From Escherichia coli (GTDB lineage: Bacteria; Pseudomonadota; Gammaproteobacteria; Enterobacterales; Enterobacteriaceae), in assembly GCF_030384885.1 (NCBI RefSeq), contig NZ_CP128615.1: 64,000 bases of DNA. The stretch is one strand, 5' to 3'. Position 1 is the stretch's first letter, and every line of letters begins with the position of its first letter. The position numbers and the translations under genes were made by a program. Positions 21,015 to 61,764 of the stretch are shown here, piece after piece. A model generated the notes under the pieces. The model did no database searches. It was not told the DNA's origin and was given only the letters and a program-made list of their open reading frames with translations.

Positions 21015-21023
21015 AAATTCATC

Positions 21024-22967: not shown

Positions 22968-23174
22968 GTTGGAGTCATTACCTTCTTTGCCGCCGGACAT
23001 TGTCCGGCGCAACACCAAACCGGTCTGGCGGGCTGAGCCAATCCCGCAGGCAAATTCAGCCCTTACCGGATGGCTCAGCCCCCTACTCATTGGAATTGGA
23101 TATTCAACTTTCAGGGGCTACTGCGCCAGACTTCAGTCTTTAAAGTGATTGACTTAGCGCCTGGCACACTCAAT

Positions 23175-23486
23175 TTATTTAGGTAGCGGGCCTAATTGCA
23201 CCCCATCAGGATAATACTTCCAGCCATCGCGAATTTTGACATTTTCATCCCACGGAAGTTTGTATTCGCCATTGGCAAGATCGCGCACCCAGGTCAGGTA
23301 ATTCTCGCGTTCGCCTCCCGGTTTGCCGACATAGCCCCGGCAGCCAAGGTTGAAAATATTGTTTTCCAACGCCCAGTTTTCACGCGCTTTATCCACCAGG
23401 CGCGGGAACAGCTCTGCGGTAACAATTTCCCATGGGTTGCGGTGCCCCTGCTGAATGACGTTACCGTCATAATTGCAGACCGTACC
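23175..23486 (-). pseudogene. C-terminal fragment of an unidentified gene, truncated by IS903
   Basis: Open frame runs from the IS903 boundary (23486) to stop at 23175; no N-terminus. Confidence 0.3.
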
Positions 23487-24543
23487 GGCTTTGTTGAATA
23501 AATCGAACTTTTGCTGAGTTGAAGGATCAGATCACGCATCCTCCCGACAACACAGACCATTCCGTGGCAAAGCAAAAGTTCAGAATCACCAACTGGTCCA
23601 CCTACAACAAAGCTCTCATCAACCGTGGCTCCCTCACTTTCTGGCTGGATGATGGGGCGATTCAGGCCTGGTATGAGTCGGCAACGCCTTCATCACGGGG
23701 AAGGCCCCAGCGCTATTCTGACCTTGCCATCACGACTGTGCTGGTCATTAAACGCGTATTCAGGCTGACCCTGCGCGCTGCGCAGGGCTTTATTGATTCC
23801 ATTTTTACACTGATGAATGTTCCGTTGCGCTGCCCGGATTACAGCTGTGTCAGCAGGCGGGCAAAGTCGGTTAACGTCAGTTTCAAAACGTTCACCCGGG
23901 GTGAAATCGCGCATCTGGTGATTGATTCCACCGGGCTGAAGGTCTTTGGTGAAGGCGAGTGGAAAGTCAAAAAGCATGGCCAGGAACGCCGTCGTATATG
24001 GCGAAAGTTGCATCTGGCAGTTGACAGCAACACACATGAAATCATCTGTGCAGACCTGTCGCTGAACAATGTGACGGACTCAGAAGCCTTCCCGGGTCTT
24101 ATCCGGCAGACTCACAGAAAAATCAGGGCAGCATCGGCAGACGGCGCTTACGACACCCGGCTCTGTCACGATGAACTGCGGCGTAAGAAAATCAGCGCGC
24201 TTATCCCTCCCCGAAAAGGTGCGGGTTACTGGCCCGGTGAATATGCAGACCGTAACCGTGCAGTGGCTAATCAGCGAATGACCGGGAGTAATGCGCGGTG
24301 GAAATGGACAACAGATTACAACCGTCGCTCGATAGCGGAAACGGCGATGTACCGGGTAAAACAGCTGTTCGGGGGTTCACTGACGCTGCGTGACTACGAT
24401 GGTCAGGTTGCGGAGGCTATGGCCCTGGTACGAGCGCTGAACAAAATGACGAAAGCAGGTATGCCTGAAAGCGTGCGTATTGCCTGAAAACACAACCCGC
24501 TACGGGGGAGACTTACCCGAAATCTGATTTATTCAACAAAGCC
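23487..24543 (+). mobile_element. IS903 (IS5 family), intact 1057-bp copy, no target-site duplication
   Basis: Terminal inverted repeats GGCTTTGTTGAATAAATC at both ends; flanking 9-mers differ (gaccgtacc vs agatggaat). Confidence 0.9.
23519..24487 (+). CDS. IS903 transposase
   Basis: 322 aa [45 protein letters not shown]... Confidence 0.9.
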
Positions 24544-24625: not shown

Positions 24626-25208
24626 TGACCTGCTCCCCGTTGATTAGTACACCCCGATGTTAGTAATGTCTTCATAAGCCACATGAGGACATCCCCATGA
24701 AGAAGCGTTTTTCCGACGAACAGATCATCAGTATTCTCCGCGAAGCCGAAGCTGGGGTACCCGCCCGTGAACTCTGCCGCAAGCATGCCATTTCCGATGC
24801 CACGTTTTACACCTGGCGTAAGAAGTATGGCGGTATGGAGGTGCCTGAAGTTAAGCGCCTGAAGTCGCTTGAGGAAGAGAACGCCAGACTCAAGAAGCTG
24901 CTTGCCGAAGCCATGCTGGATAAAGAGGCGCTTCAGGTGGCTCTTGGGCGAAAGTACTGACGACAGACCAGAAGCGGGAAGCCGTGATGCTGATGTGTGA
25001 TGCGACCGGTCTGTCGCAACGTCGTGCCTGCAGGCTTACAGGTTTGTCCCTGTCGACCTGCCGCTATGAGGCTCACCGTCCGGCTGCTGATGCGCATTTA
25101 TCAGGGCGCATCACTGAGCTGGCACTGGAGCGCAGGCGTTTTGGCTACCGTCGTATTTGGCAATTGCTGCGCCGTGAAGGGCTTCATGTTAATCATAAGC
25201 GCGTGTAG
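24626..25208 (+). mobile_element. IS3-family (IS407-group-like) element, 3'-truncated within orfB
   Basis: Begins TGACCTGCTCCCCGTTGATTAGTACACCCCGATG; orfA 24697-24960 and first 74 codons of orfB (24984-25208) only. Confidence 0.6.
24697..24960 (+). CDS. IS3-family (IS407-group) transposase OrfA
   Basis: MKKRFSDEQIISILREAEAGVPARELCRKHAISDATFYTWRKKYGG... Confidence 0.8.
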   Translation: MKKRFSDEQIISILREAEAGVPARELCRKHAISDATFYTWRKKYGGMEVPEVKRLKSLEEENARLKKLLAEAMLDKEALQVALGRKY

Positions 25209-31630: not shown

Positions 31631-32191
31631 TCAGTCGTCCGTGCGGAGGTACTGGTAGAGGGTTTCCCGGCTGATGTTGAACTCGCGGGCAAGCTGCGCC
31701 TTGGGCTCGCCGGCCGTCGCTCGCTGCCGCAGGGTAGCAGCCTGCTCATCGGACAGGGCTTTCTTGCGGCCCCGGTACGCGCCACGCTGCTTGGCCAAGG
31801 CGATGCCCTCACGCTGCCGCTCGCGGATCAGGGCGCGCTCGAACTCAGCGAAGGCCCCCATCACCGACAGCATCAGGTTGGCCATCGGCGAGTCCTCGCC
31901 AGTGAACACCAGGCCCTCCTTCAGGAACTCGATGCGCACGCCGCGCTGAGTCAGCTTCTGTACCAAGCGACGCAGGTCATCGAGGTTGCGGGCCAGCCGA
32001 TCCATGCTGTGCACCACCACTGTATCGCCTTCGCGGACGAAGCTCAGCAGCGCTTCGAGCTGGGGGCGCTGGGTGTCCTTGCCCGATGCCTTGTCGGTGA
32101 ACACCTTGCTCACCTGGGTTTGTTCCAGCTGGCGTTCCGGGTTCTGGTCAAAGCTGCTGACCCGGACGTAGCCGATGCGGTGCCCCTGCAC
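31631..32191 (-). CDS. tnpR: Serine resolvase TnpR (Tn1721)
   Basis: 186 aa MQGHRIGYVRVSSFDQNPERQLEQ... with catalytic serine region and C-terminal HTH. Confidence 0.9.
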   Translation of the reverse strand: MQGHRIGYVRVSSFDQNPERQLEQTQVSKVFTDKASGKDTQRPQLEALLSFVREGDTVVVHSMDRLARNLDDLRRLVQKLTQRGVRIEFLKEGLVFTGEDSPMANLMLSVMGAFAEFERALIRERQREGIALAKQRGAYRGRKKALSDEQAATLRQRATAGEPKAQLAREFNISRETLYQYLRTDD

Positions 32192-32499
32192 GATGTCTCC
32201 TTGGTTGAAGGCGGCTTAAGTGCACTTTCTGTTCCGTTGTGCCTCAAAGCCCATTTCTGTCAGGCTGAAATCTATAACCTTCGCGGGCATGTGTCAAAAA
32301 ATGGGAAAGCAGACTCTATTCTGACGAAGCGGCGCGCCCTGCCTGACATCAAGTTAGGGTATAGCCTAGATTGACATGCGCGATGCAACCCTTAACTTGC
32401 TTGCACCTATCGTTTCCATGCTAGCTTTATCGTAACGCTCAAGAAATTGGGCTTAATGCCGAAAACAATAAAATAAAACAGCCAACCCTTGAGGTTCTT

Positions 32500-34077
32500 A
32501 TGCGCCAGAATTTACCAGTGACGGGTCGAAACTTAGAACTCCCAAAAGATGCCAATATTCTTTCGACTACCTCCCCTCAAAGCCATATCACGTACGTTAA
32601 TCCTGACTTCATTAAAATCAGTGGTTTCACTGAGGAAGAACTATTAGGCCAGCCTCACAACATCGTAAGACACCCAGATATGCCGCCTGCTGCATTTGAG
32701 CATATGTGGAGTACATTAAAATCTGGCCGCTCATGGATGGGGCTAGTAAAAAATCGCTGTAAAAATGGCGACCACTATTGGGTAAGTGCTTATGTAACGC
32801 CAATAGCTAAGAATGGTTCGATTGTTGAATACCAGTCTGTAAGGACCAAGCCTGAACCTGAGCAGGTTTTGGCTGCGGAAAAATTATATGCTCAATTGAG
32901 AAGCGGGAAGGCCGCGAGGCCGAAATTGGCTGCTAGCTTTTCCGTGAAAATACTCTTGCTCATATGGGGTAGTATTATATCAAGCGCAATGGCTGCCGGC
33001 ATGCTTACTGATACATCAATAAGCAGCTTATTGTTAGCCACTTTAATGTCAGGAAGCTTAAGCTCTGTTAGTGTTTTGGCTATTCTCTCTCCTCTTGGAA
33101 GACTGGTTGAAAGAGCCAGGAATATTTCCAATAACCCATTAAGTCAATCCCTCTACACTGGGCGCACCGATGAGTTTGGCCAAATAGAGTTTGCTTTACG
33201 AATGATGCAAGCTGAAACAGGCGCCATAGTAGGTCGCATAGGTGATGCATCAAATCGGCTTAGCGAACACACCCGAGGCCTACTAAAGGATATTGAGTCA
33301 AGCAATGTACTTACAGTTGAGCAGCAGGCAGAGACAGATCAAATAGCAACGGCAGTAAACCAAATGGTGGCAAGCATTCAAGAGGTTGCGAGCAATGCAC
33401 AGCATGCTGCAGATGCGGCCGGAAGAGCAGACACTGAGACGGCATCTGGCCAGCGTCTGGTAGCCCACACAAGCCAGTCAATCACTGCCCTTGAAGGTGA
33501 AATTAGGCAAGCCACTCAGGTTATTCATGAGCTTGAAGGTCAAAGTAACGAGATATCAAAAGTTCTTGACGTTATACGAGGGATCGCCGAGCAAACGAAT
33601 TTGTTGGCACTCAACGCAGCAATTGAGGCCGCGCGTGCTGGTGAGCAGGGGCGTGGTTTTGCTGTTGTCGCCGATGAGGTTCGCAGTCTTGCTGCTCGCA
33701 CACAGCAATCGACAACGGATATTCAAAGCATGATCAGCGCTCTACAAGAGCGAGCGCAATCCGCTGTTACAGTCATGGAGCAAAGTAGTCGGCAAGCGCA
33801 CACGAGTGTAGCTCACGCAGAGGAAGCAGCTACAGCTCTTGATGGAATTGGCCAACGCGTTAACGAAATTACCGACATGAACGCGCAAATAGCGACTGCG
33901 GTCGAGCAGCAGGGAGCAGTAAGTGAAGACATAAACCGCAGTATTATCAATATACGCGATGCTGCTGATACCAATGTACAGACCGGGCAGAATAATTTGC
34001 AAAGTGCGAAATCTGTCGCTCAGTTAACTAGCGCTCTGAGCGAACTGGCAAAACAGTTTTGGGAAAAACGAGGATAA
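32500..34077 (+). CDS. Methyl-accepting chemotaxis-like protein (Tn1721 orfI / mcp)
   Basis: 525 aa with PAS-like N-terminus, two hydrophobic segments and a C-terminal MCP signalling domain ([30 protein letters not shown]). Confidence 0.8.
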
Positions 34078-42131: not shown

Positions 42132-43070
42132 TTAGCGTAGGATTTCGCCCTCTCCCGCAAACGACCCCATAGCCTCCGCAACCTGACCATCGTAGTCACG
42201 CAGCGTCAGTGAACCCCCGAACAGCTGTTTTACCCGGTACATCGCCGTTTCCGCTATCGAGCGACGGTTGTAATCTGTTGTCCATTTCCACCGCGCATTA
42301 CTCCCGGTCATTCGCTGATTAGCCACTGCACGGTTACGGTCTGCATATTCACCGGGCCAGTAACCCGCACCTTTTCGGGGAGGGATAAGCGCGCTGATTT
42401 TCTTACGCCGCAGTTCATCGTGACAGAGCCGGGTGTCGTAAGCGCCGTCTGCCGATGCTGCCCTGATTTTTCTGTGAGTCTGCCGGATAAGACCCGGGAA
42501 GGCTTCTGAGTCCGTCACATTGTTCAGCGACAGGTCTGCACAGATGATTTCATGTGTGTTGCTGTCAACTGCCAGATGCAACTTTCGCCATATACGACGG
42601 CGTTCCTGGCCATGCTTTTTGACTTTCCACTCGCCTTCACCAAAGACCTTCAGCCCGGTGGAATCAATCACCAGATGCGCGATTTCACCCCGGGTGAACG
42701 TTTTGAAACTGACGTTAACCGACTTTGCCCGCCTGCTGACACAGCTGTAATCCGGGCAGCGTAGCGGAACGTTCATCAGAGAAAAAATGGAATCAATAAA
42801 GCCCTGCGCAGCGCGCAGGGTCAGCCTGAATACGCGTTTAATGACCAGCACAGTCGTGATGGCAAGGTCAGAATAGCGCTGAGGTCTGCCTCGTGAAGAA
42901 GGTGTTGCTGACTCATACCAGGCCTGAATAGCTTCATCATCCAGCCAGAAAGTTATGGAGCCACGGTTGATGAGGGCTTTATTGTAGGTGGGCCAGTTGG
43001 TTATTTTGAACTTTTGCTTTGCCACGGAACGGTCTGCGTTGTCGGGAAGATGCGTGATCTGATCCTTCAA
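42132..43070 (-). pseudogene. IS903 transposase, C-terminus replaced by Tn5393 insertion
   Basis: 312-aa ORF identical in most of its length to the other IS903 transposases but ending ...AEAMGSFAGEGEILR inside the Tn5393 IR. Confidence 0.8.
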
Positions 43071-43102
43071 CTCAGCAAAAGTTCGATTTATTCAACAAAG
43101 CC
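42169..43102 (-). mobile_element. IS903 left-end 934 bp (remainder of the IS903 copy split by Tn5393)
   Basis: Includes transposase ORF 42132-43070 whose last codons now read into the Tn5393 inverted repeat; terminal IR ends at 43102. Confidence 0.85.
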
Positions 43103-43406
43103 CATTCAGTCCTCAATTTGTGCATTTTTTAAACGAAAAAAGGGTGTCTAATACGGTGAAATCATAGTATTACCAAAGTAATAAATAAAAAGTTATTTAA
43201 ATCAGTAATTTAGATTTGATTTGTAATACCTGGGTAATACCGCAGCATGGCTAAATTTTGTTTTTTTTCTTTTAAATCAGTGCGATAGCGTGATTTATCA
43301 CGCTGCGTTAGGTGTATAGCAGGTTAAGGGATAAAAAATCATCTTTTTTTGGTAGGGCGATCTCCGTAGGTTAAGGGGCATTTGGCTAAAAAGCGTCCTA
43401 TTCTTT

Positions 43407-43430
43407 GATGGTCATGCTTGCATGACCATC
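43407..43430. promoter_or_regulatory. Perfect 11-bp-arm palindrome GATGGTCATGC-TT-GCATGACCATC (operator-like)
   Basis: Read directly from sequence; lies just upstream of an array of 11-bp direct repeats. Confidence 0.4.
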
Positions 43431-43440
43431 TGAGCAACCA

Positions 43441-43592
43441 AAAACTACAGATAAACTACAGATAAACTACAAAAAACGTTTTGCCTTAGTGTTGTAAGAC
43501 TACAAATAGACTACAATAAAACTACAAATAAACTACAAAAAACGTGACAGACTACAAATAGACTACAATAAAACTACAGATAAACTACAAAA
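43441..43592. repeat. Eleven 11-bp direct repeats (consensus about RACTACARWTA) in three clusters; centromere- or iteron-like
   Basis: aaactacagat x2, aaactacaaaa, gactacaaata, gactacaataa, aaactacaaata ... in helical phase (11-bp period). Confidence 0.7.
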
Positions 43593-43650
43593 CTCGATTG
43601 ACCCCTTCTTACGAGTGTTGTAGAGTCATTTTCATACAACGGAGGGGGTT

Positions 43651-43830
43651 ATGAATAAACCAGCAGATCTGAAACCCCGCAACTTATCGGCTGCTGTCAG
43701 ATTGCGCCTAAATGAAATCGAGAACTGGCTGGACAGAGGGCTAACGCGGCATGAAATTGCTGAAATCCTCGACAGCGAATACAGCTTTTCGGTAACAGCC
43801 AAAGGGCTTGAGATGGATGGCACTGTATAG
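43651..43830 (+). CDS. Small hypothetical DNA-binding-like protein (59 aa)
   Basis: GGAGGGGG RBS then MNKPADLKPRNLSAAVRLRLNEIENWLDRGLTRHEIAEILDSEYSF...; below the 60-aa cutoff of the ORF track. Confidence 0.35.
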   Translation: MNKPADLKPRNLSAAVRLRLNEIENWLDRGLTRHEIAEILDSEYSFSVTAKGLEMDGTV

Positions 43831-44124
43831 AACGCGGCAAAACCGAAAAAATGTATTGCACAATACGCATGATAAGAGTAGCGCGAAGGGTGCAGCGGAA
43901 AGTGTATTGCACAATACACAACCGTCTGAGCCTGAAGTGCAGGAAAGTAAAAAAGCAGAGAGTCCCGGCATTATTGATAAAGAATTCTTCAAGAAAATCG
44001 GTGAGAATTTCGACCCTAAGAAGTTCAACAAAAAATTCTGAGGTGATTTATGAAAGTAGCGGTAATTAATTACAGTGGCAGTGTTCGTAAAACCTTAATT
44101 TCATCTTACCTGTTAGCCCCGCGC

Positions 44125-45181
44125 GGCTTTGTTGAATAAATCAGATTTCGGGTAAGTCTCCCCCGTAGCGGGTTGTGTTTTCAGGCAATACGCACGCTTT
44201 CAGGCATACCTGCTTTCGTCATTTTGTTCAGCGCTCGTACCAGGGCCATAGCCTCTGCAACCTGACCATCGTAGTCACGCAGTGTCAGTGAACCTCCGAA
44301 CAGCTGTTTTACCCGGTACATCGCCGTTTCCGCTATCGAGCGACGGTTGTAATCTGTTGTCCATTTCCACCGCGCATTACTCCCGGTCAGCCGCTGATTC
44401 GCAACAGCACGGTTACGGTCTGCATATTCACCGGGCCAGTAACCCGCGCCTTTTCGGGGCGGGATAAGCGCGCTGATTTTCTTACGCCGCAGTTCATCGT
44501 GACAGAGTTGGGTGTCGTAAGCGCCGTCTGCCGATGCTGCCCTGATTTTTCTGTGAGTCTGCCGGATAAGACCCGGGAAGGCTTCTGAGTCCGTCACATT
44601 GTTCAGCGACAGGTTTGCACAGATGATTTCATGTGTGTTGCTGTCAACTGCCAGATGCAACTTTCGCCATATACGACGGCGTTCCTGGCCATGCTTTTTG
44701 ACTTTCCATTCGCCTTCACCAAAGACCTTCAGCCCGGTGGAATCAATCACCAGATGCGCGATTTCACCCCGGGTGAACGTTTTGAAACTGACATTAACCG
44801 ACTTTGCGCGCTTGCTGACACTGGTGTAATCCGGGCAGCGCAACGGAACATTCATCAGTGTAAAAATGGAATCAATAAAACCCTGTGCAGCCCGCAGGGT
44901 CAACCTGAACACGCGTTTAATGACCAGAACGGTGGTGATGGCGAGATCAGAATAGCGCTGAGGTCTTCCCCGTGATGAAGGCGTTGCCGACTCATACCAG
45001 GCCTGAATAGCTTCATCATCCAGCCAGAAAGTTATGGAGCCACGGTTGATGAGGGCTTTATTGTAGGTGGGCCAGTTGGTTATTTTGAACTTTTGCTTTG
45101 CCACGGAATGGTCTGCGTTGTCGGGAAGATGCGTGATCTGATCCTTCAACTCAGCAAAAGTTCGATTTATTCAACAAAGCC
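44125..45181 (-). mobile_element. IS903, intact copy, no target-site duplication
   Basis: Terminal IRs present; transposase 44181-45149; flanking 9-mers differ. Confidence 0.9.
44181..45149 (-). CDS. IS903 transposase
   Basis: 322 aa [33 protein letters not shown]... Confidence 0.9.
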   Translation of the reverse strand: MKDQITHLPDNADHSVAKQKFKITNWPTYNKALINRGSITFWLDDEAIQAWYESATPSSRGRPQRYSDLAITTVLVIKRVFRLTLRAAQGFIDSIFTLMNVPLRCPDYTSVSKRAKSVNVSFKTFTRGEIAHLVIDSTGLKVFGEGEWKVKKHGQERRRIWRKLHLAVDSNTHEIICANLSLNNVTDSEAFPGLIRQTHRKIRAASADGAYDTQLCHDELRRKKISALIPPRKGAGYWPGEYADRNRAVANQRLTGSNARWKWTTDYNRRSIAETAMYRVKQLFGGSLTLRDYDGQVAEAMALVRALNKMTKAGMPESVRIA

Positions 45182-45673
45182 GTCTGTGTTGTAAAATGGC
45201 GCCGAAAGCCCGGCGTAGCCGGTTGCCGGGCTATAAATTCTGCCACCCTACCCCCTGCCCTGATTAGCCTTAACTCGCGAACAGCAATGAAGAAGTCAAA
45301 GTAATCCCTTTTAACCCCGGTGAGCGGGCTTTACGGCGTTTACGACGTAAAGGGCGTGATTTCCGGGGCCTAAGCGGCGGCAGCTTGCTGCTGACGCTTA
45401 GGGGGATGTTCATCAACTATTTCAGCGACACCAGGGAACTTAACACGGTAGCTGCAAAGCCCTAATCCCGCTCACCGCCACGCAGCTGCCGTACGTCCCC
45501 CACGGGGGTGCGCAGTGCTGCGCGCGGGAACGGCGGCCCGTCTGCGGGACGCGGCGCCGTACTGCGCGTTAGCGGCCGCACGCGGCCGGTTACGGGGGAC
45601 ACTCCGCCATACGACCAGCGACCCGCTGAGCTGCACAATCCACAGATAACACAAGCTACATACATGTCGATAT

Positions 45674-46245
45674 GGGAATCGGCCCACCTTGCCGGGCGCC
45701 GGTGCCGTGTGGAAATCCGCCCACCTTGCCGCGCGCCGGTGCCGTGTGGGAATCCGCCCACCTTGCCGCGCGCCGGTGCCGTGTGGGAATCCGCCCACCT
45801 TGCCGGGCGCCGGTGCTGTGTGGAAATCCGCCCACCTTACCGGGCGCCGGTGCTGTGTGGAAATCCGCCCATCTTGCCGGGCGCCGGTGCCGTGTGGGAA
45901 TCCGCCCACCTTACCGGGCGCCGGTGCCGTGTGGGAATCCGCCCACCTTACCGGGCGCCGGTGCCGTGTGGGAATCCGCCCACCTTACCGGGCGCCGGTG
46001 CTGTGTGGAAATCCGCCCACCTTGCCGCGCGCCGGTGCCGTGTGGGAATCCGCCCACCTTGCCGCGCGCCGGTGCCGTGTGGGAATCCGCCCACCTTGCC
46101 GGGCGCCGGTGCTGTGTGGAAATCCGCCCACCTTACCGGGCGCCGGTGCTGTGTGGAAATCCGCCCATCTTGCCGGGCGCCGGTGCCGTGTGGGAATCCG
46201 CCCACCTTACCGGGCGCCGGTGCTGTGTGGAAATCCGCCCATCTT
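45674..46245. repeat. Tandem array of about 15.5 copies of a 37-bp repeat (GAATCCGCCCACCTTGCCGCGCGCCGGTGCCGTGTGG with point variants)
   Basis: Contiguous head-to-tail repeats without spacers; downstream of a truncated repA paralog, i.e. in the position of an incC/incA-type iteron array. Confidence 0.85.
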
Positions 46246-46292
46246 CATGACAAAAATTTGTCAAATGACAGGCTCATGTGTGCTGATTTATG

Positions 46293-46595
46293 TCAGACGG
46301 GATTTTGCTTATCAATTATTGAGAACAGAAATTTTCCTGAATCATCAATACTATACTTAGCAAGTAAAGGTGTTTTCTCATTTATCTGCTTGAGTGCAGG
46401 ATCAAGGAAAGATCGTTTCAACTCTGCCAAGTTCTTCTGCTGGGATTCCGGTAAGACGAAACGGTCATTTAACCAAGCATGAGTAGTAACCCATAAGCCT
46501 GAAGATTTGAATTGAGCAAGACTTTCATAAAGGCGGATCGTCCGGGGATTTCGAAGACTGCCACAATCGCGGAGCGAGTAGGTGGTGAACTGGTT
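46293..46595 (-). pseudogene. C-terminal fragment of a second Rep_3-family RepA, truncated by IS1
   Basis: Minus-strand translation ...YSLRDCGSLRNPRTIRLYESLAQFKSSGLWVTTHAWLNDRFVLPESQQ... aligns with the C-terminus of the intact RepA at 54177-55043. Confidence 0.6.
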
Positions 46596-46610
46596 GGTAA
46601 TGACTCCAAC

Positions 46611-47114
46611 TTACTGATAGTGTTTTATGTTCAGATAATGCCCGATGACTTTGTCATGCAGCGCCACCGATTTTGAGAACGACAGTGACTTCCTGCCCAG
46701 CCTTGCCAGATGCTGCCTCAGATTCTGGTTATGCCGCTCAATTCGCTGCGTATATCGCTTGCTGATAACGTGCAGTTCTCCCTTCAGGCGGGATTCATAA
46801 AGCGGCCAGCCATCCGTCATCCATACCACGACCTCAAAGGCCGACAGCAGGCCCGGAAGACGCTCCAGCGTGGCCAGAGTACGCTCACCAAAGACGCGTG
46901 CCACCACCGTCCTGCACATCCTGCCATAGGCGTAAAATAACCAGCGCTGACGTGATTTAGCCCCGACGTAGCCCCACTGTTCGTCCATTTCCGCGCAGAC
47001 AATGACGTCACTGCCCGGTTGTATGCGTGAGGTTACCGACTGCGGTCTGAGTTTTTTAAGTGACGTAAAATCGTGTTGAGGCCAACGCCCATAATGCGGG
47101 CGGTTGCCCGGCAT
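46611..47114 (-). CDS. insB: IS1 InsB
   Basis: 167 aa, 95 percent-range similarity to the other insB in the window. Confidence 0.85.
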
Positions 47115-47308
47115 CCAACGCCATTCATGGCCATATCAATGATTTTCTGGTGCGTACCGGGCTGAGAGGCGGTGTAAGTGAACTGTAGCTGCCATGTTTT
47201 ACGGCAGTGAGAGCAGAGATAGCGCTGATGTCCGGCAGTACTTTTACCGTTACGCACCACGCCTTCAGTAGCTGAGCAGGAGGGACAACTGATGGAGATG
47301 GAAGCCAC
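47033..47308 (-). CDS. insA: IS1 InsA
   Basis: [30 protein letters not shown]... Confidence 0.85.
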
Positions 47309-47379
47309 TGGAGCACCTCAAAGACACCATCGTACACTAAATCAGTAAGTTGGCACCATTATCCGGCAGGCGATCTGGA

Positions 47380-49300
47380 TTATCGTCACGCTGTTAAATA
47401 TGTCGCGGTAGGGATACCCGTTACCGGATACCCCCCGCACAGATCCCGGCGTGCGCGATTTACGCACCGGGCTCCTGCCTCGGGTGTCTGGCGGTGAACC
47501 GCTCCACAGGCCATGGATGAAGAACCCGAACCCTTGGTAGCCATGCGGCTGCCAGTTTGTTTGCTTTCGTCCAGGTCGTATCATCCTTCTGGCTCCTGCG
47601 CCTGAGCGCCCGGCGCCAGAGGTTTGTTACGTGTGTCCTGAACTTCTGCATGGTGGGGAAGTTGCCCGGTACCGAGTGATAGTTCAGGTATCCCTGAACC
47701 ACTCTCCTGAGCCATTTTCCCTGTTCGGGGATTGAGTAATGCCAGCGCCTTCGCAGACCGTCTTTGATGGCTTTCAGAGTTGCCGTCATCCGATCCCGGC
47801 GGGTCTTTCGTATCAGCATGAACCTGCCGTTGCGATCTTTCCCGCTGATGTGCGTGAACCCGAGGAAGTTGAACGTTTCTGGTTTGCCTTTTCCCCTGAT
47901 GGCACGGTTTTCGGCAGCGAAGCGGCCGAACTCCATCAGACGGGTTTTCTCCGGGTGAACCGTGAGTCCGAACTCCCTCAGTCTGCGCTGCATGGCTATA
48001 CGGAAGCGCCGGGCATCGTATCGTTTGTCGAACCCGATGACGATGTCATCGGCGTATCTGACCATTACCACATTGCCTGTGGCATAGCGACGTCGCCACT
48101 GATGCGCCCACAGATCGAAGACGTAGTGGAGGTATATGTTTGCCAGCAGCGGTGAGATGACCGCACCCTGTGGGGTGCCTTCCTCCGTTGCTCGCCATTG
48201 ACCCTCCTCCAACGTCCCGGCTGTGAGCCACTTACGTATGAGCCTGATTACGCTCCGGTCGCCGATCCGATGCTCTGTGAACCTGATCAGCCATTCGTGG
48301 CTCACCCTGTCGAAGAACTGACTGATGTCGGCATCCAGTACCCAGTTTACGTTAGTGCGTACCAGCCCTGTGGCCAGTGCGTCCAGTGCATCGTGCTGGC
48401 TTCGCCCGGGTCTGAACCCGTATGAGAACCCCATAAAGTCGTTTTCATAGACTGCGTTCAGGATTTTCACCAGCGCATACTGGACGATCTTGTCCTCCAG
48501 CGAGGCGATGCCGAGCGGGCGTTGTTTTCCATCCGCTTTTGGGATGTAGTGACGCCTGCCGGGCTGCGCCCTGTAGCTGCCCTAATGTAGCCTCCGGTGC
48601 AGATCTGTTATGTTGTTCTTCATGTTTCCGGCGTAGTCCATCCACCTGATGCCATCCACTCCGGCGGCCGCTTTCCTGCTCAGGGAGAGGAATGCGGCTT
48701 CCAGTGCTTCGACTGTCAGCAGGTGGAACAATGCTGTAAACCGTTCTTTCTTCCGCTGCTTCGCAGCTTCCCGCACGCGTGACAGCCTCTGTGACATGCT
48801 TTCCCGGCTCTGTGTCCGGCGCATGTGTGGCTGTTCCGCGTTCCCCTTGGCCCCGCTCCTTCGCTCCACTGACTCCGCTCCTTTCGGGTTGTTCGCCTGC
48901 TTCGCCGCTACTATGAGCGAGTCCGACTTCTCCTCTCCGTACATCACCGGCTATGACTCCTCGTCTTCCCGGTGCGGGCCGTCTCCGACACTGGCAGATG
49001 GTCAGAGGGGAGATCTCCCGGTTCCCGCGTAGAGATCGTATTGACATGCCAGGGTCTCAGACCCCGCCGGGTCCATGTGGCACTCGCAGTATCGCACCCT
49101 ATGATGTTGCCTTCCGTTAACAGTACAACGTCGGCACCCGGTAATTTAATATACATTTCGTGGCTCAATGGCTGGCCTGTCAACACCCCTGTCAACGCTT
49201 CGCCCCATACCTCGCGGTATGCAACGCATGACTCGGGGACCTTGTGGATTGCTGGTCCTTCAATGGTCGGGGACTTTCACCCCTTGATCTCTACCGGTCT
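47380..49300 (-). mobile_element. Group II intron (bacterial, ORF in domain IV), boundaries approximate
   Basis: Encodes an intron-type reverse transcriptase/maturase; domain-V-like hairpin GAGCCCGGTGCGTAAATCGCGCACGCCGGG near 47458-47490 just 3' of the ORF; a GTGCG 5'-consensus-like motif is seen but is too close to the ORF to be the certain 5' end. Confidence 0.55.
47460..48947 (-). pseudogene. Group II intron reverse transcriptase/maturase, split by a frameshift near 48470-48600
   Basis: N-terminal ORF 48582-48947 (domain 0: ...AAAGVDGIRWMDYAGN...) and C-terminal ORF 47460-48470 (RT motifs incl. VRYADD and maturase X-domain VQGYLNYH) are in different frames. Confidence 0.7.
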
Positions 49301-49311
49301 CCCGGTGAACA

Positions 49312-49327
49312 CTGTATGTATAACCAG
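49312..49327 (+). promoter_or_regulatory. LexA (SOS) box upstream of the umuD-like gene
   Basis: CTGTATGTATAACCAG, one mismatch from CTGT-N8-ACAG, about 25 bp upstream of the RBS. Confidence 0.5.
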
Positions 49328-49352
49328 TAAAATTAGAGTGTCAGGAGGAAAG

Positions 49353-49784
49353 ATGAAACTACAACTTTTCAGCACCGGGAAAGAACTCCCGCCACAGGCC
49401 CATCCATTGTTTGCCGATCTGGCCAGCTGCGGTTTTCCCAGCCCTGCTGCTGACTATGTCGAGTCCGATCTGGATCTCCATGATTACTGCATACGGCATC
49501 CGAGCGCGACGTACTACCTGCGTGCCAGCGGAGACAGCATGGCCGACGGCAGTCTGTACAATGGCGATCTGCTGGTTGTGGACAGTGCTGAAAAGCCGCG
49601 GCACGGCGATATCGTTGTCGCCAGCATGCAGGGGGAGTTTACGGTGAAACGGCTTCTGCTGACGCCGCGACTGACGCTGCAGCCCATGAATGCCTCCTGG
49701 TCGCCGATTTATCCTGATCCCGACGAGCTGGATATCTTTGGCGTCGTCACGCATATCATCCACCGCCCGAGGGAGATGTACTGA
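49353..49784 (+). CDS. umuD: UmuD/MucA/ImpA-family SOS mutagenesis protein (S24 peptidase)
   Basis: ...[20 protein letters not shown]...[22 protein letters not shown]...[10 protein letters not shown]; the 270-aa track ORF is an upstream read-through. Confidence 0.85.
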
Positions 49785-51055
49785 TGTTTGCCCTGGCCGA
49801 TGTGAACAGCTTCTATGCCAGCTGTGAACGTGTTTTCCGCCCGGATTTGAAAGGAAAGCCGATAGTCGTCCTGAGCAACAACGACGGGAATGTAATCGCT
49901 CGCAGTGCCGAGGCGAAGCCCTGGATCAAAATGGAAACTCCGTGGTTTCAGATAAAAAACGAAAGATACCCGGAAAAAATATATGCGTTTTCAAGTAACT
50001 ATGAACTTTATGCCTCGATGTTGGCGCGCGTGATGAACAGCCTGGAGGAACTGGCCCCCAGAGTGGAACAGTATTCAATTGATGAGATGTTCCTCGATTT
50101 GACCGGCGTGGAGCACTGTATGGAGCTTGAGGACTTCGGCCGGCAGCTGCGTCAGCACGTGTATGACTGTACCCACCTGACCATTGGCGTGGGCGCCGGA
50201 CCAACGAAGACCCTCGCAAAATCAGCCCAGTGGGCCTCAAAAGAGTGGAAACAGTTTCGTGGCGTACTTGCTCTGACCAGGGGAAATCCGCAGAGAACGC
50301 GGAAACTGCTTTCACTGCAGCCGGTTGAAGAAATCTGGGGGGTGGGTAACCGTATTGCACGCAAGCTGAATGTACTGGGCATTAAGACCGCGCTCGATCT
50401 CGCCCTGACGAACCCGGCCTTCATCCGCAAAAATTTTTCTGTGGTCCTTGAGCGAACGGTACGGGAACTGAACGGGGAAAGCTGCCTTTCGCTTGAGGAA
50501 GCCCCTCCGACGAAACAGCAAATTGTCTGCAGCCGCAGTTTTGGCGTGAAGATCACGGAGTACGAGTCACTCCGTCAGGCTATCTGTCAGCACGCAGAGC
50601 GGGCCTCTGAAAAACTGCGTAAAGAGCACCAGTATTGCCGGCATATTTCCGTTTTCATCAAAACGTCTCCGTTCGCCATTAAAGAGCCTTACTACGGCAA
50701 CGTGGCTACGGAAAAACTTCTTACACCCACTCAGGACACCAGGGACATCATTGCAGCCGCTACAACGGCTCTGGAGCGTATCTGGAGGGATGGGCACCGG
50801 TATGCCAAAGCCGGAGTTATGCTGAATGACTTCACCGGCTCCGGCGTTTCGCAGCTGCAGCTGTTCGACGAACGCCCGCCACGCCCTTACAGTGCTGAGC
50901 TGATGAAGGTTCTGGACGGGATCAACAACTCAGGGCTGGGTAAAGTATGGTTTGCGGGGCGGGGTATTGCCCCGGAATGGCAGATGAAACGGGAGATGCT
51001 TTCTCCTGCTTATACGACACGATGGTCAGATATTCCTTCAGCGAAACTGGCGTAA
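49784..51055 (+). CDS. umuC: UmuC/MucB/ImpB-family Y-family translesion DNA polymerase
   Basis: 423 aa [41 protein letters not shown]...; start overlaps umuD-like stop. Confidence 0.9.
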
Positions 51056-51059
51056 AACT

Positions 51060-51140
51060 TTGGCGATTTCACCTTGAAATTCTCAGCCTAAACTGCCTAA
51101 TTACAATAAGTTAGATGTGAAATCGCCATGGCGAAATTAT
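51060..51140. promoter_or_regulatory. P1-type partition site parS
   Basis: Heptamer ATTTCAC/GTGAAAT and hexamer TCGCCA/TGGCGA boxes flanking an AT-rich (IHF-like) core, immediately downstream of parB. Confidence 0.6.
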
Positions 51141-52114
51141 TGACTCAAATTTCTGTCAAGGACCTCGTTGATAGCCTTGTCCAGTTCATCCTGAATCACT
51201 TTTGACATACGGCTAAACTCATAAGTCAGCGTACGCCCTTTCACACGCTTACGCGCGAACTTGTCCTTTTCTTCAAAAGACCAGAGTGGGGAAACCACTG
51301 ACTTTTCCTTGGGAGATGGATCTATCAATGCCTGAGATGCCTGAGAAATCAGCTTCAGTATACTGGCTTTCTGTTCGTCTTCTGGTCGCTCGCCTTCACT
51401 CAAAATTGCATCGAGCTGAGCTGATACAGACTGAATGAGTTCTTCAGGCGTTAATCCCTTTTCACTGAGTTTTTCATTAACTTCTAAAAGAAGTTTATAG
51501 TCACTAAACGATAGCTCCGACTGAACCGGGAACAGAGAAATCAAGTCTTGCGGTACGGCCGCCGCCTGCAGCGCCCTGGTAACTTTAGCTTGAGATAACC
51601 CCTCCAGTTCAGCAATTTCCTTTTGATTAAATCCGGACTCTTTAAGAGCGATCAATCTCAGGCCAATCTCCCGAAGATTATGTTCTTTAGCTGTCTGGAT
51701 ATCTTTAGCCAGTTGGCGAGCTTCATCAGCTGATAAATGCTCTTCGGTAACCATTACATCAAGGCCTGTACGGACAAAAATTGCTGAGGCTCGCCGTCTT
51801 GAACCATCCAGTATCTCAATCCTTTCACTTTGCTTAATACCAATACAGGGAAAGAACTGCTGAAACTTAATCGTCTGGATAATGGATTTCAGGGATTCCC
51901 TGGTCAGTGCAAGTTGATCTCTTCCGTTGTTTTCCTGGTTTACGAAGGTCTTACTTTCAACTTCAGATGCAGGCACCCGAACAAACCTGAACGTTACCTT
52001 CCTGCCGGTTTTTAAGGTAAATACCTGGCTTCTACCGGTGTCCGTCATTTCCGCAATTGACGCCTGGGTATTTAACTGTCTGCCGATGGTTTTTCTTTTC
52101 TCATTCGACATCAC
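51137..52114 (-). CDS. parB: P1-type partition protein ParB
   Basis: 325 aa; ...EILDGSRRRAS...GLSQAKVTRALQAA...RFARKRVKGR... strongly resembles P1 ParB. Confidence 0.9.
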   Translation of the reverse strand: MMSNEKRKTIGRQLNTQASIAEMTDTGRSQVFTLKTGRKVTFRFVRVPASEVESKTFVNQENNGRDQLALTRESLKSIIQTIKFQQFFPCIGIKQSERIEILDGSRRRASAIFVRTGLDVMVTEEHLSADEARQLAKDIQTAKEHNLREIGLRLIALKESGFNQKEIAELEGLSQAKVTRALQAAAVPQDLISLFPVQSELSFSDYKLLLEVNEKLSEKGLTPEELIQSVSAQLDAILSEGERPEDEQKASILKLISQASQALIDPSPKEKSVVSPLWSFEEKDKFARKRVKGRTLTYEFSRMSKVIQDELDKAINEVLDRNLSQ

Positions 52115-53316
52115 ATACCTCCGTTAGTACGAATGAACTCGATGCGATCAAAGACTGCCTTCGCAAAGTCTTCCGCTGCTGATTTTGCGCTTTTTAGTGC
52201 CTCTGTACTTCCATCATAGGTTGCTGGATTTGCTGAAATAACTGTGTCAAAAGTCTCCCCACAACGTTCGAAACCATCCAGTCTTGGCAGAACCATGTCT
52301 AGCATATCGGCACCGAAAACCTCTTTGGCCTGACTATGGCAAATTTTGTGATCAGACTTGTTCAGGATCTTGGACATGAAGCCGACATTACCGATGAGAT
52401 TGCAGGTGTGCCCATCCATTTCGATGGAATCTATGAGGGCAGGGAGGCTGGCCACAAACTTCAGGGAAGAATGAAAATCAACCGTCGCCGGTGGAAGAGG
52501 GGTCAACATCAGGTCTGCCGCCCCAATGCAGTTTTTCAGGAACGCATCAAGGTGAGGACCACTATCAAGGAAAATAAAGTCGTAGTCATGCTGGAGCTTG
52601 TCGATAATGTTCTCTTTAAGCACCGCATGAATATTTTTCCCTGGCAGATGTTCTTCACACAATCCCTTCCAGCCTTCAGCAAGGAATGCATCGTCAATGG
52701 AAGCGGGGATTACATCAACACCAGGGATAATAGACGGTACTATAAAATCGGAAAGTAATTCTTCACGAGACACGTTCTGGAGCATGGCCTGAGCAGCCGT
52801 ATTTTCAACCAAGCCCACTGAATTCTCATGGCTCAGGAACATTGTCAGAGATGCCTGCGGATCGAAATCGATGGCCAGAATACGCAGGTCTTCGAACAGA
52901 AGCTGAGGATGAGCTCGAAAAGCATGTGATAATGAAGCGGTAGAAACTGTCTTGGAACCACCACCTTTAAGATTACATACAAAAATCGTAAAGGCTTTAT
53001 CGAAGCGATCCCTGTACTTCGGTACTTTACGATGGTTATACAGATCGATGACATTCTGAATCGTCATCGCGTATTTCATCGTATTACCAGAAGGTTTCTT
53101 TTTAAAAATGTAGCCACCGGCTTCCATTTCGGACACAGCATACTCAACACTGCCTTTACTGAGCTTAGGCAGCTTATACAGAGCGGCTTTGCTGTATTCC
53201 TGATAGAACTCGGTAAGCTTCAATTCCTCTTTTTGCTGTCGGATACTTTCGCTCAAAGATGTCAGAAGCTTACCTGCACGTGTAGCGACTTTCCGTAACT
53301 GCTCAATATTGTCCAT
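52111..53316 (-). CDS. parA: P1-type partition ATPase ParA (type Ia)
   Basis: 401 aa; Walker A-containing NLKGGGSKTVSTASLSHA and N-terminal DNA-binding extension as in P1 ParA. Confidence 0.9.
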   Translation of the reverse strand: MDNIEQLRKVATRAGKLLTSLSESIRQQKEELKLTEFYQEYSKAALYKLPKLSKGSVEYAVSEMEAGGYIFKKKPSGNTMKYAMTIQNVIDLYNHRKVPKYRDRFDKAFTIFVCNLKGGGSKTVSTASLSHAFRAHPQLLFEDLRILAIDFDPQASLTMFLSHENSVGLVENTAAQAMLQNVSREELLSDFIVPSIIPGVDVIPASIDDAFLAEGWKGLCEEHLPGKNIHAVLKENIIDKLQHDYDFIFLDSGPHLDAFLKNCIGAADLMLTPLPPATVDFHSSLKFVASLPALIDSIEMDGHTCNLIGNVGFMSKILNKSDHKICHSQAKEVFGADMLDMVLPRLDGFERCGETFDTVISANPATYDGSTEALKSAKSAAEDFAKAVFDRIEFIRTNGGM

Positions 53317-53707
53317 TTATCACCTCATGACGTTTTTTGTCATTTTGAACAAAAAGTGTCATGTTGCAAGAAAAAAATCATATTGTTTTGATTTCGCTCT
53401 CAACAGAAGGGGGATGAAGCTCGACGGGCGTGCTACTAAATCACACTGCAGCAACACGCAGACGCACTTTTGACCATCAACAGCAACTCATACAAAAGGG
53501 CTTTGAGAAAGGTATTCAACTTGCAAGACAGGAGAGTCATTCAGAAGGATTCTGATTTTAGTTACGACCAGTGCAATGCTGAGCCTTATGTATCAGCGCT
53601 CGCCGCAGCCATGTAACCGAGCGTAGCGAGCGAACTGGCGAGGAAGCGAAGAGGAACCGTTCCGGCAGATAGCTCTTACGCTCAGCACAAGAAGAGTTTT
53701 CCATCCT

Positions 53708-54125
53708 CTGTGGGAAACAGGTCAACTTTAATGGACGCTCCGGACTATGGGAAACAGGTCAACTTCGCGGACGGCCCGGACTATGGGAAACAGGTCAACT
53801 TCACGGGCGGCCGGGAGTGTGGGGAACAGGTCAACTTCGCGGACGGCCCGGATTATGGGAAACAGGTCAACTTCGCGGGCGGCCGGGACTGTGGGAAACA
53901 GGTCAACTTTGCAGACGGCCCGGACTGTGGGAAACAGGTCAACTTCGCGGGCGGCCGGGAGTGTGGGGAACAGGTCAACTTCGCGGACGGCCCGGACTAA
54001 GGGAAACAGGTCAGCTTCTCGGACGGCCCGGACTATGGGAAACAGGTCAACTTCTCGGACGGTCGGGAGTGTGGGAAACAGGTCAAGTTAGGCAAGCACT
54101 ATGGGAAACACAGCAAGTTCAGTAT
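53708..54125. repeat. Array of about 11 direct 36-bp repeats (TGGGAAACAGGTCAACTT core); iteron/copy-control locus downstream of repA
   Basis: Regular 36-bp period read directly; located between repA stop and parA start. Confidence 0.85.
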
Positions 54126-54176
54126 CCCCCCATATGTCAGCAACAAACTAAGGGGGGAGGAAATAAAAATTACAGA

Positions 54177-55043
54177 CTATTGTTTTTTATCAAGAAAATT
54201 AAACAGCAAGCGACCATCTTCTTCAGTGGTATATGTTACCTTTAATGGCGTCTTCTCATTAATTTTCTTCAGAGCAGGTTCCAGGAAGGTACGCTTCATT
54301 TCAGCAATATTGTTTTTCTGCGAGGCAGGGAGCATAAACCTTTCACATAACCAGTCATGTGTGGTGATCCAGACACCAGTGCTCCGGAACTGACACAGGC
54401 TTTCATAAAGCCGGATGACACGAACACTATTAAGCTGGCCACAGTCATAGAGAGAATAGGTAGTGAACTGGGAGGTTAAGCCGACCAGGAATGGCATGAC
54501 CTTGTAGTTAAATTCAATCTGCCAGGAACCCCGGCCTCGCTTCATTCCTGCTTCAGCCAGCCACGGACGTTTAACTTCTTCAAACTCACCTTCTTTTGGA
54601 TAAAAGGTAACCGTTGATTCGCCCAGAGCATTTACCCCAGCCTTCACATCACGACTGGCGACAGACGTAGCGACATTGAAGTATTTGACGTAATCGGAAA
54701 CGCTGATTTTGAAGAGCGGCAATACGTCAGAGTCATCTTCCTGGCTGTCATTAAAATAGGCCTGCATGAGGCATAACCACAGCACACGTTTTGCCTGAAG
54801 AGGCAGGTAATATGCAGCTTCGGTCAATTCGTTAGATTGCTTTATACTGGCGCGTTTTTTAAACGTTTTAGTAGCTGGCAAGAGTGCTTGAGTATCCATT
54901 TCAATGCCTATGGGTAAATTTTTACCCACCCATAATGACAGTGAAAACAGAAATTGCAAGCTATCGCGATACTTATCCACCGGAAAAATCTGCACTTTAT
55001 CCACAAGTGGATAATTGAGAACTGAACTTGACCTCTTTCCCAT
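54177..55043 (-). CDS. repA: Rep_3-family replication initiator RepA (RepE of F-like)
   Basis: 288 aa; ...IKQSNELTEAAYYLPLQAKRVLWLCL...VIRLYESLCQFR... parallels F RepE. Confidence 0.85.
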   Translation of the reverse strand: MGKRSSSVLNYPLVDKVQIFPVDKYRDSLQFLFSLSLWVGKNLPIGIEMDTQALLPATKTFKKRASIKQSNELTEAAYYLPLQAKRVLWLCLMQAYFNDSQEDDSDVLPLFKISVSDYVKYFNVATSVASRDVKAGVNALGESTVTFYPKEGEFEEVKRPWLAEAGMKRGRGSWQIEFNYKVMPFLVGLTSQFTTYSLYDCGQLNSVRVIRLYESLCQFRSTGVWITTHDWLCERFMLPASQKNNIAEMKRTFLEPALKKINEKTPLKVTYTTEEDGRLLFNFLDKKQ

Positions 55044-55260
55044 AGCTTGTTGATGCGTATCCCATAGCTTGTTGACACAAAACCCACTGATACGTGATTA
55101 ATTTCCCATATTATGTTTACCAGTTGCCCATACAGGCCCCCTCTCAGGCCGCACTGTACGCGGCTTTCAGGCTCCCTAAAAGATGTAAAATAAAGAAAAA
55201 GAATAAAAAAGTACTTTATAAAAATATGCCCGTGGATAAGTGGATAACCCCGAGGGGAGG
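55030..55260. promoter_or_regulatory. Probable replication origin: short repeats over the repA start, AT-rich stretch, two tandem DnaA boxes (55231-55249)
   Basis: CCCATAGCTTGTTGA x2, A/T-rich 55170-55230, GTGGATAAGTGGATAAC. Confidence 0.5.
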
Positions 55261-55772
55261 TGATTTTTCAGGCATTGAGCGTAAGCAGAATTTATAAGTT
55301 TTGTTCCCTGGTGCTTCCTCGCTCACTCGGGGCTTCGCCCTGTCGCTCGACTGCGGCGAGCACTGCTGGCTCGATCATATCCGTGGCCGGAAGATACTAC
55401 TCCTCCCCCGAGTCGCTCTCCAGAGCCGGCTACAGCGAGACAACCCGCACGAAGATTTCTATCGTCCCTGCAGACATATTCGAATCGTTTTTATTAACCC
55501 TGGCTTCCGTCGTGACAGAACACTACGTCCTGTAAAAGGGGGACTAAGGCCCCTGAATCACACACCTGAATAATGCGGAGTTTTACGATAATGTCATTGC
55601 TGGAAACTTTCCTGACCGCTTCTCAGGGGGCAACAATCCTGTTCCTTGCCATGCTGATCTACTGGCAAAAGCGATAAATCCAAGCGGGCTGGCCTTTGGC
55701 CAGCTTCGCTGTATAAGGGGAAAAATGCGGCATATCCAGACATTTCACTAGGCAATTTGAATTCAGATATCT

Positions 55773-56063
55773 ATGCTTGGGATCCGGTCAACAGGAGGTA
55801 ACAAGATGAAACTTGAAACTATACAGATAGATAATACCGTAAGGAGTGGTCTTAATTCTTTCACTGACGGGGTGATTATTCGTGATACAAAGGTATTGAT
55901 CACGCTCAATCTCCCGGATGGACAGAAAACCACTATTGAGGGGGAATGGCGGCATATGTCGGACGCCAACAGGTTGTCAGAACGTATTACGATGCTTCAG
56001 CATGCGATCTATGAGCAGTATGAGGAATACAGAGCAGATATTCCCGTCAGCTGGTCCAGATAA
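55773..56063 (+). CDS. Hypothetical protein (probable start at internal MKLETIQ, preceded by AGGAGG)
   Basis: ORF only; no recognisable motif. Confidence 0.3.
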   Translation: MLGIRSTGGNKMKLETIQIDNTVRSGLNSFTDGVIIRDTKVLITLNLPDGQKTTIEGEWRHMSDANRLSERITMLQHAIYEQYEEYRADIPVSWSR

Positions 56064-56120
56064 CGTCTGACAGACCTCCCCGGCGAGCAGGACGTTCGCC
56101 AGCATCATTCTCCTAAGTAC

Positions 56121-56899
56121 TTAAATATTCCCTTTCAGCATGGCTACCGCATCCGCTTCGGGCATCTGAAACTGAACTCGATGCCGCGCAGCAACATCAA
56201 GTGCGAACACCTTCGTATAGACTTCCGTCGAGCTAATCGATTTGTGGCCCATCAGGCTCTGCAAAACCTTCAGTGGTATGCCGGCATACAGCACATATGC
56301 ATCGCGTAGGAGTGGCGGAACGTATGCGGGGTGACCGGCACCGAGAATGTCACCCCGTCGACGGCGGCCGCTTCAACCGCTTCGCCAATCCAGGTCCGTA
56401 CTGTCCGGTCGGTGATGTCCCAGATGCGGGCTTTCTCTGTTCTGCCGGTACGCTTGTTGCGTCTTTCCAGCGGAATTTTCAGGGTGGCCACCATCATCTG
56501 CAGCTGGCTGACGTAGTGGTGATCGGAAAGCGGAACCAGACGATGAGCCTGGCTACCGGCGGGAGCTCGGCCGGCTGTCCTGGCCGCTTTTTCGGTGCGC
56601 TGCTTAAGCGTGGCCAGCTGCACGAACGGATACGGTGGCACCAGCGAAAAATCCCCCCGGGTCAGCGCCAGCGCCTCGTTGATACGTGCGCCGGTGTTCC
56701 AGAGGGTTGCCAGCAGCATCTTGCGGTGCAAATCGGGCACATAATGGAGCAGGGCGCTGACTTCCGGTGCCAGCAGGTATTTCGGTAGTTCATCTTGAAC
56801 GAGCGCCATCTGGCGCAGGGCCAGCGCGGCGGGATAGTCAATGGCCACCGGCATTTGCGCCGGCTGCTGCGGGTGAGAATATGATAAGAGGCCGCTCAT
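56121..56899 (-). pseudogene. Tyrosine site-specific recombinase (ResD/XerD-like resolvase), frameshifted
   Basis: N-terminal 209 codons (track 56270-56899) end at ...TFRHSYAMHM; the conserved C-terminus ...LYAGIPLKVLQSLMGHKSISSTEVYTKV... continues in another frame (2-bp shift near 56285). Confidence 0.7.
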
Positions 56900-60642: not shown

Positions 60643-61764
60643 CCTTTTTTGAACAGCCTTACCTATTGCTATAGAGGGGAACTCCTACGTTATACGCCGC
60701 TTTCAGGGGATTCGACCTTAATGAGACAACTCAAATATGATCGACAACTTAAACGCGATAGTTGCTGATAAAATCAATCCATTACGCGTTTCAATTGATT
60801 AAATAATGCACTTAATGTACAAAAATTCCCGATCTCAAAACTGAACCCTAAAGATACCAGGCATCTCCCCCAGGAAGCGCCCTCATGCGTTTTCCTGTTC
60901 CGCCCCTGCCACCTACCTTCTGTTTCATACTTGTTGTATTATTGTTTTTGTTTTCAATCCCCAAGGAGACGTCGCTATATGACTGTGCGGGAGACAGAGG
61001 AAAACATTGAACAAATCTTCCCTGAGCTTTCGAACTTAATTGATATTATTAATAAATGGCTTTCCCATGGAAACATTGATCCTGAACTGGCACACTTCAT
61101 CATTTATCTTCTTGATTACCTAACCACCACACACAAAAGCATATAAAAATTTTCCTTGCACATCCATTTTTTTGCGAATATTATTATTCCTGCTGAATAT
61201 GATTCAATATCGCACGCTACTCATCCATCCCAGGATAATGAGTACATAGGTTGAAGTTTCAACACCCCCATTACGGGGGTGTTTTTTTTACCAATAAACA
61301 CAAATCACACCATCGCCATACTCTGTTTGCCAGACATCGATTGGTAAATATGCGTAACTCGCTATAATACAAAAAGAAAAATCAGAACCAGAAACCAGTT
61401 TCCAGATAAAAAACACCCTCCCGAAGGAGGGGACAGACACATTCATATTTCCCAAAACAGGAATTTTTATTTTTATGACGCATTAATGAAGTTACTTCAT
61501 CTCCAGTAGATTAACTTCATTTAAAGTGGCGATCAATCATATTTATTACGACTCTAAACTATTACAACAACCACAATAAGATATCACCTCAAATATAAAA
61601 GATAACTCTTACAAAAACGTTCCGAAAACAAAAAATACAGATAAACACCAATAAAAAACAGAAAACTCTTACACATTTAAAGATGGTAAAATAATATAGA
61701 ACTGTTAGTCTAATGGAGAAGGCGCATCTGATTCAGAGCAATCTATTGCGAAGAATCAGAGTAA

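Follow-up and report, generated by a model that had tools for sequence, protein, structure and literature searches.

Plasmid F carries incC-type iteron arrays that act in copy-number control and incompatibility. The closest described counterparts of the locus analysed here are found on IncR plasmids, where the feature is already known: it is described in the literature as "region N" and is common and widespread in this plasmid group. On the IncR plasmid pST1023, region N lies just upstream of retA and contains IS903B, an IncN repA remnant, 37-bp iterons and IS1X3 (PMC9412624). The same study found region N in 74 IncR sequences, called its iterons the RepA-binding site and gave the IncR iterons as 36 bp × 10.4 (PMC9412624), and further IncR plasmids with the same relic have been reported (PMC11047700). 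Comparable material occurs on F33 plasmids as delta-repA / iteron I / CUP6 modules, for which 30-31 37-bp units are tabulated (PMC6052338). With reference to Papp & Iyer 1995 and Krishnan & Iyer 1990, that paper assigns to the iterons a role in replication and in the control of copy number (PMC6052338), and two of these papers attribute the binding of RepA to the 37-bp repeats to Papp & Iyer 1995 (PMC9412624, PMC6052338). In addition, IncR:IncN1 multi-replicon plasmids have been described in which an IS1X3-bounded cryptic region lies next to the IncR backbone and a complete IncN1 replicon is also present (PMC6353027).

We analysed a 64,000-nucleotide stretch of Escherichia coli DNA (contig NZ_CP128615.1), here called the window, in which a long array of 37-bp repeats lies beside a truncated initiator gene. 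This locus very probably derives from an IncN1 (R46/pCU1-type) replication module and persists within an IncR multiresistance plasmid as a relic, a non-replicating passenger whose array would be a latent target for IncN1 RepA. The relic, its boundaries and the replication genes of the host plasmid are laid out as follows.

44125-45181, minus strand: IS903B of the IS5 family, which bounds region N on the left, with terminal inverted repeats at 44125 and 45164-45181.
45182-45451, no strand: about 270 bp of non-coding IncFII(K)-type DNA that separate IS903B from the CUP element.
45452-45672, no strand: IncN CUP (conserved upstream repeat) element, adjoining the iterons.
45673-46245, no strand: IncN1 iteron array of 15 full 37-bp units and an 18-bp partial unit, consensus TGGGAATCCGCCCACCTTGCCGGGCGCCGGTGCCGTG.
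46246-46292, no strand: spacer of 47 bp that separates the stop codon of repA from the iterons; the same arrangement is found in intact IncN1 plasmids (contiguous alignment with R46 and L004).
46293-46595, minus strand: IncN1 repA 3' remnant, codons 140-239 plus the stop codon, encoding WH2 in full and the end of WH1.
46596-47363, minus strand: IS1 (IS1X3 isoform), 768 bp, with matching terminal inverted repeats and the insA and insB open reading frames.
47364-49277, minus strand: group II intron of the IncR backbone with retA; its 3' end abuts IS1.
53711-54086, no strand: IncR iterons, 36 bp × 10.4 (Tandem Repeats Finder), the working counterpart of the orphan array.
54177-55043, minus strand: intact IncR initiator gene repB, an open reading frame of 288 aa with Pfam Rep3_N and Rep3_C domains.

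The frame of the repA remnant consists of 100 open codons (46296-46595) followed by a stop codon at 46293-46295. Its translation matched Pfam Rep3_C (WH2) over the complete domain with E = 8.5e-10, Rep3_N (WH1) over its final 25 residues with E = 0.0036, and the NCBIfam RepE model with E = 1.9e-15. An earlier note on this DNA had read the fragment as the C-terminal 100 residues of a Rep_3 initiator encoded on the minus strand, and these matches bear that reading out. The full-length IncN1 RepA contains both Rep_3 domains (Rep3_N, E = 1.4e-29; Rep3_C, E = 4.3e-9; Pfam) and is a full-length homologue of the F-plasmid RepE, with a match to the RepE structure 1REP at E = 1.5e-29. The gene therefore belongs to the Rep_3 family with its two winged-helix domains, but it is not a complete translatable gene in the window, where only codons 140-239 are left. 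The 5' 58% of repA (the first 139 codons) and everything upstream have been lost from the relic. Other pieces of IncN1 repA (its 5' half) or of its upstream region were absent from the 64-kb window, and the missing 5' part was not found beside other IS1 copies in the window, as the idea of an IS1-mediated inversion would have it. No ATG, GTG or TTG start codon for the remnant occurs before 46430, and the frame meets a stop codon five codons inside IS1 when it is followed upstream of the junction. Because there is no early start codon and a stop lies just inside IS1, the remnant should yield no meaningful protein. The window contains no cognate initiator for the array, in line with the earlier description of an orphan array from a degraded second replicon.

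We used Tandem Repeats Finder to define the array, which had been counted as about 15 contiguous 37-bp repeats. The program resolved 15.5 copies arranged head to tail, with 93% matches, 0 indels and a score of 957, and this is the top-scoring tandem repeat of the 64-kb window, far above chance expectation. The originally proposed span of 45674-46595 does take in the array, the 47-bp spacer and the gene fragment, except that the array starts at 45673. The units are contiguous without spacers, which rules out a CRISPR-like array. When cut into units, the array reads ABCDEFGGHBCDEFHI, and the block BCDEF is repeated 8 units (296 bp) further on. This pattern indicates that the array was enlarged by higher-order duplication, a signature of unequal recombination. 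The unit variants of the orphan array and of working arrays are lineage-specific and all near-consensus, and the lineage is too young for decay to show. A scan of 45150-46700 found no promoter or terminator.

The assignment to IncN1 rests on close and collinear matches to intact plasmids, in the first place to R46, which serves as the reference for IncN1. Positions 46006-46598 of the window, which cover the repA 3' end, the spacer and iterons, align with R46 32157-32749 at 96.8% nucleotide identity over 593 bp (blastn). The encoded fragment is identical at 99/100 amino acids to RepA residues 140-239 of R46 and of L004. The 37-bp units are 92-97% identical to the R46 iterons at 32510-32749, and the array is collinear with this segment and with L004 4351-5109. 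In L004, an intact IncN1 plasmid, the order is repA, spacer, 20.5 units and CUP, and a 93.3% HSP between L004 and the window spans the array and the CUP element at the equivalent position. The CUP element of the window matches R46 at four sites with 82-84% identity (23442, 24783, 25993 and, in reverse, 32983), and it corresponds to "CUP6" (PMC6052338). The locus thus has an IncN1-type repA, 37-bp iterons directly downstream of it and then CUP, as in the IncN1 replicon.

On the left, the IncN-derived DNA ends at approximately 45452-45472. The adjoining sequence (45182-45472) is 95% identical to a stretch located about 760 bp downstream of the IncFII repA gene in pKPC2_095132, and the 270-bp IncFII(K)-like stretch occurs in 2,464 records of PLSDB (72,556 plasmids), mostly from Klebsiella. 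About 20 bp of this stretch coincide with the beginning of the CUP element, an overlap that may mark a recombination point. The IS903B element that closes the region has a 322-aa transposase reading frame (44181-45149), which is named IS903B transposase in the pEFER annotation. Left of IS903B, at 43103-44124, there is further IncN-like debris. One stretch of it is oriT-like and shares 80% identity with R46 19991-20312, and 11-bp repeats of the form ACTACAnATAA occupy 43442-43591. Relative to OW849432, a 4-bp insertion (GATG, 43812-43815) shifts the frame of a stbA homologue at 43652-44040, and a stbB-like gene that starts at 44051 is cut by IS903B at 44125.

On the right, IS1 abuts codon 140 of repA, so the gene is indeed truncated by the IS1 at 46596, as had been claimed. 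The element at the junction is annotated as IS1X3 in pEFER and many other records. The 9 bp that flank it on the two sides are unequal (GAACTGGTT versus CGGCAGGCG), and there is no target-site duplication. This absence indicates that the junction arose from IS1-mediated deletion or recombination rather than from simple insertion. IS1 bridges two unrelated sequences, the repA remnant and the IncR backbone. Within the backbone intron, the Rfam model group-II-D1D4-6 matched at 49052-49277, and no match to intron domain V/VI (Rfam) was found in the 96 bp between the retA stop codon and IS1. Because these domains are missing beside IS1, the 3' end of the intron was seemingly removed by the same IS1 that cuts repA. 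Compared with OW849432, the retA reading frame (47460-48947, minus strand) also has a nonsense change at window position 48584, where codon 122 reads TAG instead of CAG. The insB reading frame of IS1 (window 46596-46615) is in frame with the repA remnant, separated from it only by a TAA stop and five codons; this shared frame is probably a coincidence.

The plasmid that carries the relic has its own intact replication module. Positions 42838-56702 of the window are collinear at 99.92% with the IncR-typed K. pneumoniae plasmid OW849432, the repB DNA is 100% identical in IncR-typed plasmids, and the neighbours of repB are parAB, umuDC and the retA group II intron. Carrier plasmids are typed as IncR only (MOB-suite). 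Judged by its sequence, the host is an IncR multiresistance plasmid of Enterobacteriaceae. IS903B, the remnant, the iterons, IS1X3 and retA are all present in order and are linked to the IncR backbone (repB, parAB, umuCD), which makes the locus a member of region N. The array of 36-bp repeats that had been noted after the intact Rep gene is there, and it comes after repB in the same orientation as the array after the remnant. Two 22-bp repeats lie directly upstream of repB (55028-55086), and on the opposite strand they include an iteron-like TGGGATAGGGGTCAA motif; these repeats are probably an autoregulatory operator of repB.

The earlier note had also called the truncated gene a paralog of the intact one at 54177. 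Alignment of the fragment with the intact Rep (54177-55043) gave 59/97 identities (61%) with E = 6e-46, a significant similarity that is matched by the Pfam and NCBIfam hits to Rep_3 proteins. The relationship is therefore real, but the fragment is not an internal duplicate. IncR RepB and IncN1 RepA are 58% identical overall and belong to two plasmid groups, which indicates that they are homologues from different plasmids rather than duplicates made within the host plasmid. The fragment is instead foreign DNA of IncN1 origin (99/100 aa to R46).

Other parts of the window contain a complete type 1 BREX locus at approximately 8200-24200, with brxL, pglZ, pglX, a DUF262 gene, brxC, DUF1788 and DUF1819 genes and a WYL regulator. 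E. coli plasmid NZ_CP024857.1 matches the BREX region at 100% identity. Beside the locus are a group II intron and an IS110 element, and vapBC is found at approximately 2.4-3.1 kb. Rfam searches gave two further matches above the gathering score, both on the plus strand: the UptR small RNA at 61192-61283 (123 bits) and the IS1222 ribosomal frameshift element at 24927-25044 (152 bits).

We determined how widely the relic is distributed using a 650-bp query across repA::IS1, of which at least 80% had to be covered. The junction is present in 664 PLSDB records, compared with 1,602 records for IncR repB and 999 for the 5' half of IncN1 repA. Junction carriers include pEFER of E. fergusonii ATCC 35469. 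The number of array units among carriers is 9, 16 or 24.3, the last value being taken from PMC9412624.

These data lead us to propose that the relic comprises the last 100 repA codons, the 37-bp iterons and CUP, bounded by IS1X3 on one side and by the IncFII(K)-like stretch and IS903B on the other. The relic would make no initiator and would not fire by itself, and replication of the host plasmid would depend only on IncR repB and the 36-bp iterons. Because its iterons are intact and near-consensus, the array should still bind IncN1 RepA, and it probably does so. If IncN1 RepA were supplied in trans, the array would be expected to bind it and to become a titration or handcuffing sink, which would amount to a latent IncN1 incompatibility determinant; such behaviour is established for iteron arrays as a class. 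The earlier suggestion of Rep titration or incompatibility is a reasonable one for iteron arrays, and by analogy the array could serve as a latent IncN1 incompatibility or titration locus. No literature test of titration or incompatibility was found for the IncN remnant in the papers that we read. In the multi-replicon plasmids noted above, a complete IncN1 replicon sits beside an IS1X3-bounded cryptic region (PMC6353027), so strong cis interference or incompatibility is not obvious. Otherwise the array would be carried passively, its number of units drifting through unequal recombination.

One observation could run counter to a pure passenger. The relic is present in about 40% of IncR repB-bearing records, which could reflect selection rather than hitch-hiking. 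We therefore considered whether the orphan array has been retained because it is functional, either as a sink that destabilises IncN1 competitors or as an extra control locus that is cross-recognised by the IncR initiator, and we regard retention for function as unlikely. In the first of these forms, the array would be kept as a weapon that soaks up or handcuffs the RepA of an incoming or resident IncN1 plasmid and thereby displaces the competitor. The iterons are undegraded: they match one another at 93% and share 92-97% identity with those of a functional plasmid. Among PLSDB records, 664 have the relic and 1,602 have IncR repB. Iteron-bearing segments serve to displace related replicons, according to one report (PMC11983097). 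However, all carriers are >99% identical around the junction, which indicates recent spread, and common descent with hitch-hiking explains this distribution. The unit number is not constant among carriers, and plasmids with both IncR and IncN1 replicons exist (PMC6353027). Together, these observations make a role against IncN1 plasmids quite unlikely.

It is very unlikely that the remnant is a dormant origin, switched on by RepA provided in trans from a co-resident IncN1 plasmid to give a helper-dependent second replication route. There is a precedent in a defective FIB replicon that is activated by Rep from another plasmid, as described in the same report (PMC11983097), and nothing is missing from the array, the spacer or the CUP side of the replicon. 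Yet everything upstream of repA codon 140 has been lost, including the region upstream of the gene.

The second form of functional retention, in which IncR RepB cross-recognises the IncN1 iterons and the array becomes an additional site of copy-number control comparable to incC of plasmid F, draws on the likeness of the two systems. RepB and IncN1 RepA are 58% identical overall and 61% identical in the C-terminal DNA-binding part. Their iteron consensuses agree at 22/37 positions; the first 18 bp (TGGGAAnCnGnnCAnCTT) account for 13 of these, and 0 of 2,000 shuffles reached the score of this match. The five differing positions of the 18-bp core are nearly invariant within each array, though, which suggests that specificity is set there. 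IncN and IncR are separate groups in replicon typing, and some plasmids carry both replicons (PMC6353027). Finally, most IncR repB-bearing records are without the junction, so the array is not needed. For these reasons we hold cross-recognition to be highly improbable. Open reading frames of 192-324 aa do cross the array on both strands, but a repetitive protein can be dismissed. Since 37 is not divisible by 3, each open reading frame through the array cycles through all three frames from unit to unit. Both strands have several open frames, which is what a GC-rich repeat without stop codons should show, and the same DNA is a non-coding, unannotated iteron region in IncN1 plasmids.

We therefore favor the reading of an IncN1 relic carried as a passenger. 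The relic is a useful lineage marker for IncR resistance plasmids, the same IS1 junction being found in 664 PLSDB records, and replicon typing by partial IncN hits should not count it as a second working replicon. If the array does titrate IncN1 RepA, it would represent a natural decoy of one plasmid against another, of modest interest for plasmid competition and curing strategies. Its importance beyond correct annotation is slight.

Among known systems, the incC iterons of plasmid F (RepE family) resemble the relic in being direct repeats downstream of a Rep_3 initiator gene. Their units are only about 19-22 bp in length, whereas those of the relic are 37 bp and far more numerous, and the initiator gene of the relic is destroyed. 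In the F33 modules (PMC6052338), too, IncN1 replication DNA with an incomplete repA and a long run of 37-bp units rides as a passenger on a plasmid from a different group. They differ in that IS26 truncates the 5' end of repA, the arrays have 30-31 units and the host replicon is IncFII. The basic IncN1 replicon of R46, pKM101 and pCU1 shares the repA 3' end, the spacer, the 37-bp iterons and the neighbouring CUP element with the relic, which, unlike the R46/pCU1-type replicon, is without the first 139 repA codons and the upstream region. The unit number is 15.5 in the relic, 6.5 in the R46 record and 20.5 in L004, and the far side of CUP is occupied by resP in the IncN1 replicon versus IncFII(K)-like DNA and IS903B here. 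Region N of other plasmids differs from the present locus only in unit number (15.5 here, 24.3 in pST1023 and 9 in p101EVA-1) and in a few point differences. In pST1023, pEFER and others, region N has the same parts in the same order, and pEFER and hundreds of other records match the junction at 99-100% identity.
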